Assembly: GCA_041650805.1 (NCBI GenBank)
Contig: JBAZKM010000003.1
Location: 156,439-220,438, forward strand
From: Candidatus Omnitrophota bacterium
Lineage (GTDB): Bacteria; Omnitrophota; Gorgyraeia; 2-01-FULL-45-10
DNA length: 64,000 nt
Direction: 5' to 3'
Positions 44,201 through 47,200 of the stretch are shown in pieces. The notes beneath the pieces were generated by a model that was given only the letters and a program-made list of their open reading frames with translations, ran no database searches and had not been told where the DNA came from. Numbering within the stretch: the first letter of the stretch is position 1; each line of letters begins with the position of its first letter. Position numbers and translations under genes: made by a program.

Positions 44201-47200
44201 GCGCTGATAATCAAAAGCAGACATACCGCAAGAGAGATAGAGGATCTCATCCCGGCCTTGCGGCAGGCAGGCATTACGAGAAGCGCTCAGATAGCCGGCA
44301 TACTGTATGGTGAAGGATCAAAGGAGGAAATAGAAGAGAAGATAACGCAAAAGACTTTACCGGAAAAGGAGAAAGCCGCCCCGGCACCCGCAGAGGTTAT
44401 GGCACAAGATATGGCAGAGGAAATGTCCGCACAGGAAGAGACAATGGTTGCTCCTGAACCGGTCGGCGTATCGAAGGGAAAGAGGGTGATGCCGACGCTC
44501 TATAAGACGCTTCAAAGTGTCGGCCTGTTGCCGAAAGATGCGGCGCGGCTGCCGGCGGATATCGAAAAGCGGTATAGTGCGCTCTCCATTACGGATTCGA
44601 TGCTATTTCTCAAATTTTTCACGATCATGAAAAGGGTGATCGCACAGTATGCTGACGGGAGGGAAGAGGCGCCGGATGAGGATGTTTTTGTCGTAGCTTC
44701 CGAAGCATGGAGAAATATAGGCGCGATAAAGGCGGGATCGGATGTCCATGCCATTGCTCAGTCTATCAAAGGACCCGCGGAAGACGCTCTTGCCGCAGCT
44801 ATGAGAGCTATCGAAAAGGCAAGAGAGGAAACGGCCCGTAAAAATCTGATGGAAGAGAGAGCGACCGAAGAAGAGGATGAGGATGTCCTGGCGGAGCAGT
44901 TTGCCGAGAGCGCCCTTAGAGGGGAGGTGCCCGAAGATCTCGAAGAAGCGCTTGAAGAAGTAAGGGGCGAGCTTACCGAGCAGAGCAGTGCAGAGGTGTT
45001 ACCGGAACCCGATTCAGAGCTGTCTATGGAGGAATCGGATGCTCCATCTGCCGGCAGGACTACGCCCGGCAACCTCGGCCCCGGCGCGATGAATATCGAC
45101 GAGCCGTTCGAAGCCCAGGGCCCACAGCCCACGGCCCAAAGCCCAGAGTTACCAGTTCCCGACTCCGGACTCCAAGCTCGACCATTCGCCGACGTTACCG
45201 TTACACCCGTTGTCGGTGAAGCAGCCGGGGTGACATTGCGAGGACTGTATAGCATCCCAGCGATACCGGATGAAACAACGGCACAACCGTTCTTTAGTGT
45301 AATTATGCATGAGCGATATTATAAAGAATTTACAGAAAAAGTGGTGGATTTCCTAAGAGCATTGGAAGAGTCAATGAATACACCAAAAGAGACAAGAGAA
45401 GAAAAAAGCAAGGTATTGCAAAAAAAATATTCACTTCATGATGCTATGACTAAATCACTGCATAAATGGGCTGAATATACCCTTCAAAATACCAATGCTG
45501 ATGGGCCATTATATGCGCCAGGAAAGGGTTTTTCTTTATATGCTATAATTCTGGCTTGTAACACCATTTCAGATTTCTACCCTCAATTTACACATATCAA
45601 ACCAGAGGAATGGCTTTGTTATGAAATCGCCTCTTATGGTAAATTGCCTCTAAACGAAAAAAATAGGAATATACTAATAAAGGCTAACGGATATTTGGAA
45701 CGGGTATTAGCTGACGAAGATAGGACGAACCAGATATGTAGGGACCTTTACGGGGAAGATTACAGAGTTATAAATTTAGTCTTAAAATGGCTTGGTAACA
45801 TAGCCGAAATTACTGCTCATCCCGCGGAACGGAATAAAGCGCGTAACTTTTTAACGTATTTTATAAAACAGTTATTAAGAGAGAATAGAGATATATTAGA
45901 GGCATTTGCATCATTTGTATTTGACAGATTTGAGAAGGCGAAAAAACAACGCTCCGGATCAGAAGAAAATCATGGCATTAAAATCGCAATTGTATTAACT
46001 GGCGCAGAACATCTGGGGCAATGGTTGAGGATAAAAAGTAAATTATTAGGAAAGGAAATAGCGTTTCAGGACTTATCGTTAACGCTATCCATGTTTATGC
46101 ACCTTGAATATATTAATGATGCAGGAGATTCGGGCAGTTATATTTTAGGACAGTCATCGAAGGAATCGTTAAAGCAATCCTTACATGAAATAGGCATAAC
46201 ACCTAGTGACACGAGACATTTGATACTTGTCGATACGGGCTTTGAAGGTAGTATAAATAAGTATATAGTTTATCCATTAAAAGAAATGGGCGTTAGCGAA
46301 GAATTGTTATTACTATTTCGGAAAGATGAAAGGTCTGTAAACACATATGGGTTTAATCAAGAGCAAGGTTGGGAAGGCTCGGAAAAAAGGTTGCGTAAAT
46401 TAGCGCATATAATAGATGATGGATTTGAAGCTTCCACGCTTTCGCCGACACAATTTTCTGATATTACAGACAAAAAGCTCGCATCTACCCAGAGACCATG
46501 GTTTTGTGAACTTATAAAAAGAGAAATAGAGCTATTTGCATATACAACTTCTGAAGGTTTATCTGCGACACAGCCGGATATTGCTGAGGATGATTTAGTG
46601 GGTGCCGCCCCATTAACTGCCCGTCCATTTGCATTATTCCCCGCTGCAGGTGCAACGGCAGAAGTATCTACTACGCCGGCCGGCGGCGTGCCCCAAAGCG
46701 ATGTGTCTCAGACGGTTCAACAAATTGCTCCGGAGACGTTTTCCGGACCGATCGGGAAAGCGTCTCCCGATGCGGGCGAAGACACCTTCCCGAAGGATTC
46801 GGAAGCCGTTTCTGTAGCTAATGAAGAGCAGGAAGGGCTTATCCAACTTTATCGTAGATTATATCCTGTTGTATTTGAATTTGCGGATCAGGCGGGTATA
46901 GTGACCGGGGATAAAGTTGTAGTGATCGGAACGCATGTCGATTGGCAGTGCGGAATCGCCTGTGCTCTCAAAGGTGCAGATGTGATATCGATAGGTCTTG
47001 AATCCGATGAGGACGAGCGTGAGTTTAAGGCCGCTGATGAGGTAAGGGAGAGCATTGAAAAGAACGGCGGACAATATAGAATTATGCGTCCGTATGATTA
47101 TTTAAAAGTTCCCGTCCCGGAATCGAGTATCAAGATTATTGTGGCACAAAATGTGATCGATGATCCGGAAGCAAATTCACCCGCTATAGTACGAAAAATG

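Follow-up and report, generated by a model that had tools for sequence, protein, structure and literature searches.

A low-GC domain within a giant multi-enzyme gene of a Candidatus Omnitrophota bacterium: composition, family and possible lateral origin

The origin and diversification of giant genes in bacteria remain an open question; two accounts of giant proteins from Omnitrophota (West-Roberts et al. 2023, bioRxiv 10.1101/2023.11.21.568195; Nielsen and Lui 2026, bioRxiv 10.64898/2026.06.07.730766) cover their domain content and not the route of their assembly. Here we ask how a markedly AT-rich block came to lie inside such a gene, an open reading frame (ORF) of 7,094 amino acids (aa) from a Candidatus Omnitrophota bacterium. 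It was studied in a stretch of 64,000 nucleotides (nt) of the assembly GCA_041650805.1 (contig JBAZKM010000003.1, positions 156,439 to 220,438 of the forward strand), which is referred to as the window and to which all coordinates refer. An initial annotation, made from the sequence alone, had described the block as a recently acquired domain cassette inserted at recombination points defined by conserved linkers. The observation was confirmed and the interpretation is partly supported: the block is one complete domain, and its lateral acquisition from a lineage of lower GC content, in frame and as a cassette, seems to be the best explanation, with a probability that we put at about 0.62.

Composition and edges of the low-GC block

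Two-state maximum-likelihood segmentation, run over positions 43500-48500, sets the edges of the block at 45290 and 46564, with a GC content of 0.359 inside and 0.518 outside and a log-likelihood gain of 48. The low-GC block of 1.3 kb (0.36 versus 0.52 in the flanks) is thus real; its start had been placed exactly, whereas the end first given, 46610, lies about 45 nt too far downstream. A 300-nt sliding window yields a GC content of 0.34-0.38 over about 45300-46500 and of 0.50-0.61 on both sides, and all other 1-kb windows of the 64 kb have at least 0.49. At third codon positions the GC content (GC3) of the block is only 0.301; the remainder of the giant ORF reaches 0.579, and 17 further genes in the window reach 0.709. 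Restricting the comparison to four-fold degenerate sites gives 0.37, 0.65 and 0.78 in the same order. Relative to 657 null windows of the same length, whose minimum is 0.47, the block lies at z = -4.7, which bears out the preference for A/T-ending codons noted at the outset. Its translation is enriched in K, N, Y, F and L; isoleucine, which had been counted among the enriched residues, is not (0.072 versus 0.076).

Codon usage differs from that of the flanking modules and of the host as well. Measured as relative synonymous codon usage (RSCU), the module is negatively correlated with the host genes (r = -0.34) and positively with genes from two low-GC Omnitrophota metagenome-assembled genomes (MAGs; r = +0.36 to +0.42), whereas the rest of the giant gene follows the host genes (r = 0.90). 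Two side observations concern the surrounding sequence. Host genes (for example, 6070-8658, 25402-27195 and 51557-54984) show a codon usage that is peculiar for a GC3 of 0.71, with 67% ATA and only 2% ATT among the Ile codons and 42% AGG among the Arg codons. The giant ORF as a whole has a GC3 (0.58) below that of its neighbours, yet its codon preferences are host-like.

The frame is maintained, as initially stated: the block is open throughout. Since, in addition, all family-invariant residues are kept in this AT-rich sequence, the module does not appear to be decaying. In the AlphaFold2 model described below, the first to the last helix span nt 45296-46564 (aa 5376-5798), and the homology limits obtained with phmmer are aa 5370-5808. 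Because segmentation, phmmer limits and helix ends agree, compositional island, homology unit and folded domain can be taken as one; they coincide within 2-10 codons. The residue numbers of about 2040-2480 first assigned to the block need correction to 5374-5798, counted from the ATG at 29171. Neither a second copy of the module within the window nor any other ORF of at least 40 aa inside the block was found. The idea that the AT-rich DNA conceals an antisense gene or an internal promoter was considered and rejected, since ORFs are missing and promoter-like sites are as frequent as chance predicts.

Regarding the linkers, between which the block was said to lie exactly, copy 4 of linker B, the heptamer repeat and copy 2 of linker C are all real (Table 1), but the block does not abut them: GC-rich spacers (0.57-0.63) lie in between, the GC shifts being about 160 nt downstream of linker B and about 170 nt upstream of linker C. 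Breakpoints at this distance from both linkers do not support an insertion at linker-defined points. Each flanking spacer contains one copy of the peptide ARPFA (aa 5336 and 5817), and the 7,094-aa protein has no other; the pair may be a coincidence (rough p about 0.002-0.01), may be left over as a scar of the junction or may serve as a short functional motif. The possibility that the two spacers represent a duplicated target site was rejected, as apart from this peptide they are not similar in nucleotide sequence.

The linkers themselves are similar beyond what their peptides would demand. At shared residues, identical codons are used in 18 of 22 cases between copies 2 and 4 of linker B, in 17 of 21 for linker C and in 15 of 21 for linker A, that is in 71-82%, and 0.35 would be expected from codon usage alone. 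The linkers therefore seem to be homogenised at the nucleotide level or recently duplicated, with unrelated modules between them. Together with the variable slot upstream of rimP (see below), this lends independent support to the earlier view of an actively evolving modular locus. The peptide QPTAQSP, encoded by the heptamer tract, recurs at aa 6079, and two other proteins carrying the module (P0025 and P0027) possess repeated cassettes of their own just ahead of it.

Short tandem repeats are a further feature of the inter-module linkers. Besides the tract next to linker B, 7-nt repeats lie in frame at 47382-47472, 48016-48111 and 49768-49833, and 8-nt repeats at 34316-34337, 35635-35665 and 37095-37125; they have 3-5 copies, some of them 100% perfect (GTCACCA x4.3, GTCCACG x3.9), and encode linkers between modules. 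Heptamer repeats are unusual as coding linkers, and gain or loss of a unit in the 7- or 8-nt repeats would shift the frame, so that they could act as truncation switches via replication slippage.

An unannotated domain family and its predicted fold

When 1.84 billion cluster representatives were scanned exhaustively with the module by phmmer, the giant protein itself and 29 others were recovered, the best of which are 37-39% identical. With the closest sampled relative at 37-40% identity no donor is identified, and a recent date of the supposed acquisition is not supported; the foreign composition and the presence of one complete in-frame domain stand. Sequence searches of Pfam, NCBIfam and PDB with the module gave no match, and Pfam likewise matched none of 22 family members. 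Many carriers of the domain are long or giant (4,055, 3,992, 3,720 and 6,492 aa), and a few members are free-standing (P0010, 421 aa; P0013, 460 aa; P0024, 408 aa; P0021, 380 aa).

In the alignment of the 22 sequences, from which the family motifs were read, LKWLGNxAE, LTGAE, LTxxM, hhhhDTGxxGS, GLN..W, DDGFExS and RPW are conserved. AlphaFold2, run with this alignment, gave a model with a pLDDT of 88 and a pTM of 0.88 (a single-sequence run reached a pLDDT of 39 and was not used), in which eleven helices are followed by an alpha/beta domain. The latter has a phosphoribosyltransferase (PRT)-type core with a parallel sheet and a deep phosphate-binding pocket, and contains the motifs LTGAE (after strand 1), LTxxM, DDGFExS (D5749, E5753) and RPW. 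At the end of the central strand lies D5688, which is followed by TGFEGS and is conserved to at least 90%; comparison of the alignment revealed that a candidate second acid, E5613 in LTGAE, is conserved in part only. The loop of HLILVDTGFEGS seems to resemble the 5-phosphate-binding loop for phosphoribosyl pyrophosphate (PRPP) of PRT-fold enzymes.

As modelled, the domain represents a new, unannotated family of about 30 clusters with a fold similar to that of the gPRT/CriT enzymes, of which the CriT domain of Haemophilus influenzae Bcs3 (PDB 8a0c/8a0m) and a polysaccharide ribofuranosyltransferase of Thermobacillus composti (PDB 7shg) are closest. Its predicted role most likely is to bind PRPP or a related phosphoribosyl compound and to transfer or process the phosphoribosyl group. 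The 22-sequence family profile, run against all PDB sequences, did not find 8a0c and 7shg at E <= 10, nor did phmmer, and a viral fold library contained nothing significantly similar to the model.

Homologous modules could be recovered together with their DNA from 13 distinct loci. The carriers belong mainly to Omnitrophota and mostly are long or giant proteins, whose neighbouring domains differ in each (HATPase_c, REC, NUDIX, APH and GT2 have been found); the same module thus does occur in other genes with different flanks, a point on which the initial annotation had asked for a check. These proteins share only the module with the giant protein, and co-transfer of flanking domains was rejected, since the flanks show no similarity to any other module-bearing protein. 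Judged by its distribution, the module appears to be the interchangeable unit of a rare family in long or giant multi-enzyme proteins, mainly of Omnitrophota. In one of the carriers (P0004, 3,992 aa, locus L004/L009), the module is directly followed by VCEANVFRSP (aa about 3509-3530), which we take to be the CX5R(S) signature typical of low-molecular-weight phosphatases; such a signature would parallel the pairing of transferase and phosphatase in gPRTs. Plasmids, phages and viral contigs were searched and contained no relatives of the module or matches to it. The exact module DNA pattern in the genome contig collection and a degenerate linker-B pattern in the metagenome contig collection gave 0 matches each; neither collection therefore holds the window contig or close relatives of it.

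Origin of the block

Within the family, the GC content of the module follows that of the host genome: it is 0.37-0.46 where the host has 0.37-0.46, and rises to 0.54-0.56 where the host has 0.52-0.55, the carriers there being JGI contigs and an Elusimicrobia MAG. The window copy, with 0.36 in a host of 0.54 (host genome GC about 54%), is the only outlier among the loci compared. Low GC is therefore not a property of the family. The amino acid composition was compared by the fractions of G+A+R+P (GARP) and F+Y+M+I+N+K (FYMINK): the window module has 0.198 and 0.305, carriers in high-GC hosts (0.55) about 0.29 and 0.20, and carriers in low-GC hosts about 0.20 and 0.30. In a neighbour-joining tree, calculated without support values, the window module groups with the copies L003, L006, L008 and L016, all of them from low-GC backgrounds (0.37-0.46).

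Composition, sharp domain edges, the tracking of host GC, the tree, codon usage and the differing flanks agree with one another, and it is for this reason that lateral acquisition is favoured. On this view, a lineage of lower GC content, probably itself one of the Omnitrophota, would have donated the coding sequence of the domain by lateral transfer. Recombination that preserved the frame would then have placed it in a slot between spacers of the resident giant gene, and its composition would have shifted little towards that of the host since. The linker cassettes, kept alike by duplication or gene conversion, could supply homology for such an exchange of modules. Between the block and a second, smaller domain of low GC3 (46808-47350) lie the GC-rich spacer and linker C. 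Searches of Pfam, NCBIfam and PDB gave this second domain no informative match, only a weak one to arsenite methyltransferase (NCBIfam, E 0.04). This domain may be a second acquired cassette or may have come along with the first in the same event. GC3 of about aa 5800-6800 generally is below that of the N-terminal part of the giant protein.

Several points weigh against this reading. The transfer is inferred from composition and from a tree without bootstrap support, and among about 15 billion proteins no donor or close relative was found, the best match being 37-40% identical. The sampled relatives carry no orthologue of the giant gene and offer no pre-insertion allele, and the window contains no mobility genes, tRNAs or Rfam RNA. 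The compositional breakpoints do not fall on the conserved cassettes B and C. The module favours ATA (Ile, 0.61) and AGR (Arg) codons just as the host does, an unusual preference that is absent from the two low-GC Omnitrophota comparison genomes; this fits a donor close to the host, partial adaptation or AT enrichment in place. Moreover, the sister copies (L003, L006, L008 and L016) are also lower in module GC3 than the rest of their own ORFs, which hints at some domain-specific bias. With respect to function, the prediction draws on fold similarity at 9-12% identity; searches of Pfam, NCBIfam and PDB gave no sequence-level link to any PRT family, and the Pfam matches of the giant protein include no HAD-type partner phosphatase.

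The last of the compositional points leads to the most serious alternative, namely that the module is an old resident, whose low GC content was produced or is maintained in place by selection or mutation specific to this domain or subfamily and not by transfer, for example by selection for slow translation during co-translational folding or for a nucleotide-level function of the AT-rich DNA. The GC3 values of the sister modules compared with the rest of their own ORFs (0.37 versus 0.46, 0.28 versus 0.44, 0.35 versus 0.49 and 0.33 versus 0.55) are in line with such a bias, the L003 module even being a robust low outlier, and both the host-like ATA and AGR preferences and the edges that follow the domain boundary would be explained by it. 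Compared with the genome background, however, the deviation of the sister modules is small (-0.05 to +0.04) and that of the window copy is -0.18, and distant clades, including those of 0.54-0.56 GC, match their hosts. The shift also extends beyond synonymous sites to the amino acid make-up, the adjoining unrelated domain at 46808-47350 is shifted in a similar way, and the block has promoter-like sites at chance level and no antisense ORF. We therefore regard a bias in place as unlikely.

Lateral acquisition of a cassette exchanged between giant genes through their linkers has to be distinguished from the arrival of the foreign block as a free-standing gene that was fused later, or from a whole C-terminal part that is a fusion of foreign genes; linkers would play no role in either case. 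Free-standing family members do exist (the four named above), the breakpoints lie off the linker cassettes and GC3 generally falls below the N-terminal level over about aa 5800-6800. The free-standing forms, however, belong to distant clades (18-27% identity), and every one of the closest relatives is part of a multi-domain protein. Furthermore, host-like spacers and nucleotide-conserved linkers immediately flank the block on both sides, and it is therefore internal to the resident framework, which makes a gene fusion quite improbable. Least probable is an error of assembly or binning, by which 1.3 kb from the gene of a low-GC organism ended up in a chimeric contig. The source is indeed a short-read metagenome assembly (ENA ERZ27247363, contig name k141_...) and related giant genes coexist in such samples. 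Both junctions of a chimera would, however, have to be in frame, and the second would have to lead back into the gene that was left at the first; members of linker families A, B and C as well as the QPTAQSP tract are present on both sides of the block; junction k-mers of at least 13 nt recur nowhere else in the window; the edges coincide exactly with a domain boundary, to which an error in the assembly graph would be blind; and NCBI, JGI/IMG and ENA all have the identical 7,094-aa product on record, the contigs measuring 66 kb and 224 kb.

A wider and more daring proposal, which we consider possible, though doubtful, is that long and giant multi-enzyme genes of Omnitrophota grow and are remodelled as whole-domain cassettes are swapped in frame, also across lineages, between short lineage-specific linkers that gene conversion keeps alike at the nucleotide level. 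The AT-rich module would then have been caught shortly after its arrival, and its family would be a new branch of PRT-fold transferases used by these episymbionts. The linkers may at the same time be processing sites, at which a polyprotein is cut into separate enzymes. If true, such genes would provide a natural platform for domain shuffling.

The surrounding gene and comparison with known systems

The features of the giant gene are listed in Table 1. A Pfam scan of its product revealed GNAT, methyltransferase, Fic, protein kinase and HD domains as well as an mTERF-like repeat array; a hydrophobic segment lies at the N-terminus (aa 15-33) and transmembrane-like segments at aa 1589-1636. The predicted product hence is a membrane-anchored multi-enzyme protein. 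A radical-SAM-type CxxxCxxC motif can be found near its N-terminus (30191-30214, aa 341-348), and an HExxH motif of the zinc-protease type (LIHEGLHL; 39707-39721, aa 3513-3517) in a module without a Pfam match; a built-in protease would be of interest if the conserved linkers serve as processing sites. The repeat array consists of roughly 36 units of ~31 aa (93-nt spacing) at about 40880-44310 (aa about 3905-5045), with a consensus like GIT.gaHIA.i..SSRs..EI..lv..Lk and a weak Pfam match to mTERF, and makes up 1/6 of the giant protein.

Table 1. Giant gene, low-GC block and neighbouring sequence elements (window coordinates)
Feature	Position (nt)	Strand	Description and basis
Giant ORF, 7,094 aa	29171..50455	+	NCBI MFA5146399.1, Candidatus Omnitrophota bacterium MAG; ORF list
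Linker A copy 1	31574..31635	+	Peptide RPPFPGHGPG.PHI.QGPDEP; 89% nt identity to copy 2 (33788-33849)
Linker B, other copies	35777-35850, 40706-40779	+	Nucleotide comparison
Linker B copy 4	45056..45129	+	Peptide RTTPGNLGPGAMNIDEPFEA; 92% nt identity to copy 2 (39128-39201)
7-nt tandem repeat AGCCCAC, imperfect	45111..45146	+	4.9 copies; encodes QGPQPTAQSP
Spacer before the block	45147..45289	+	GC-rich (about 0.6), low-complexity, host-like; first ARPFA (45176-45190)
Low-GC block, aa 5374-5798	45290..46564	+	One complete domain of an unannotated family; GC 0.36, GC3 0.30
N-terminal all-helical half of the domain	45296..45952	+	11 helices; LKWLGNxAE (W5540, N5543, E5546); alignment, AlphaFold2
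C-terminal alpha/beta half of the domain	45977..46564	+	Phosphoribosyltransferase-like core; alignment, AlphaFold2, fold similarity
HLILVDTGFEGS	46217..46252	+	Strand ending in nearly invariant D5688, then TGxxGS loop; alignment
Spacer after the block	46565..46732	+	GC-rich (about 0.6); second ARPFA (46619-46633)
Linker C copy 2	46733..46812	+	Peptide GPIGKASPDAGEDTFPKDSEAV; 88% nt identity to copy 1 (38072-38151)
Second, smaller low-GC3 domain, aa 5880-6060	46808..47350	+	GC3 0.37, z = -4.6 versus rest of giant ORF

The giant gene is flanked by housekeeping genes. Upstream of it, the window contains the trp operon, pgm, lepA, lepB and plsY, and the downstream order rimP-nusA-infB-trpS-scpAB-pheA is kept in relatives; the best relatives of the NusA encoded in the window all are Omnitrophota. 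Five relatives were sampled in all (NusA 78-83% identical), and at the position of the giant gene they have either no large gene or an unrelated one. The position upstream of rimP (window 50456-51556) was compared with L019, L020, L021 and L022. Directly upstream of rimP, the relatives carry proS, a multi-kinase ORF of 1,697 aa (L020 4240-9333) or an unrelated multi-module ORF. The last of these (L021 1-4116, at least 1,371 aa), with a repeated PRASASG linker of its own, was considered as an orthologous giant gene and rejected in the absence of any similarity. Since downstream synteny is fully conserved, upstream synteny is broken and the content before rimP differs, the giant gene appears to sit in a variable slot at a synteny break.

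CriT of Bcs3 is a PRPP-dependent ribofuranosyltransferase, whose PRT-like core lies amid helical bundles (PMC10299916; PMC11231755). The usual DD motif of PRTs is replaced in CriT by two separated acids, D680 and E818 in Bcs3 (PMC10299916), and gPRTs are described as paired with a HAD-type phosphoribosyl-phosphatase (PRP/CrpP) (PMC11231755). The predicted model of the module shares the PRT-type core with these enzymes, and its HLILV-D-TGFEGS, judged from the sequence, may fit the pattern of separated acids. It differs by its low identity (9-12%, with neither a sequence nor a profile match), by a helical half that is N-terminal and not interleaved with the catalytic core, and by its partners: a HAD domain is not among the Pfam matches of the giant protein, and the neighbours in other carriers are heterogeneous. 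From type I PRTs (HGPRT, OPRT, UPRT, APRT) the module differs as well. Pfam Pribosyltran matches neither the module nor the 22 family members, HLILV-D-TGFEGS has one acid instead of the adjacent acidic pair (DD motif, PMC10299916) and so departs from the PRPP motif of a hydrophobic strand, two adjacent acids and TGxT, and an extra helical domain of about 230 residues is present. With horizontally acquired islands, the block has atypical GC3 and codon usage and composition-matched nearest relatives in common; associated mobility functions or a vector were not found with it.

The toxins of the MARTX type in Vibrio, the polymorphic Rhs/CDI toxins and the polyketide synthases and nonribosomal peptide synthetases are encoded by large modular genes that are rebuilt by recombination. 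In such genes, internal or terminal domain cassettes vary by lineage, conserved junction sequences persist and the composition of a cassette often is unlike that of its framework. The giant gene resembles them in its layout, without observed exchange between alleles; its junction motifs are lineage-specific, and neither CPD, Rhs or VENN nor any other defining junction domain was found in it by Pfam.

A further comparison is that with the giant multi-enzyme proteins described from Omnitrophota (West-Roberts et al. 2023), to which the protein corresponds in its host, an Omnitrophota MAG, and in the many enzyme domains tiling one membrane-anchored polypeptide. Nielsen and Lui (2026) distinguish 'multi-enzyme metabolic clusters' (class 1, Pfam module 1) in a catalogue with a threshold of 10,000 aa. 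The giant protein matches this class, and its methyltransferase, GNAT and HD content matches their 'signal-transduction / regulatory' module, although its length of 7,094 aa falls below the threshold. Since neither of the two studies uses the words linker, mosaic, shuffling or horizontal, repeated linker cassettes and compositional mosaicism at the level of domains appear to be undescribed so far for giant proteins of Omnitrophota. To these accounts the locus would add the picture of a resident framework of nucleotide-conserved linkers holding enzyme modules of different ages, at least one of which still has the composition of another lineage, and of a whole gene located in a slot that varies among relatives. 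If the module was spliced in from another lineage, as is most likely, it shows how giant genes can grow module by module, and the newly defined domain family with its confident model provides an entry point for work on the function of giant proteins.

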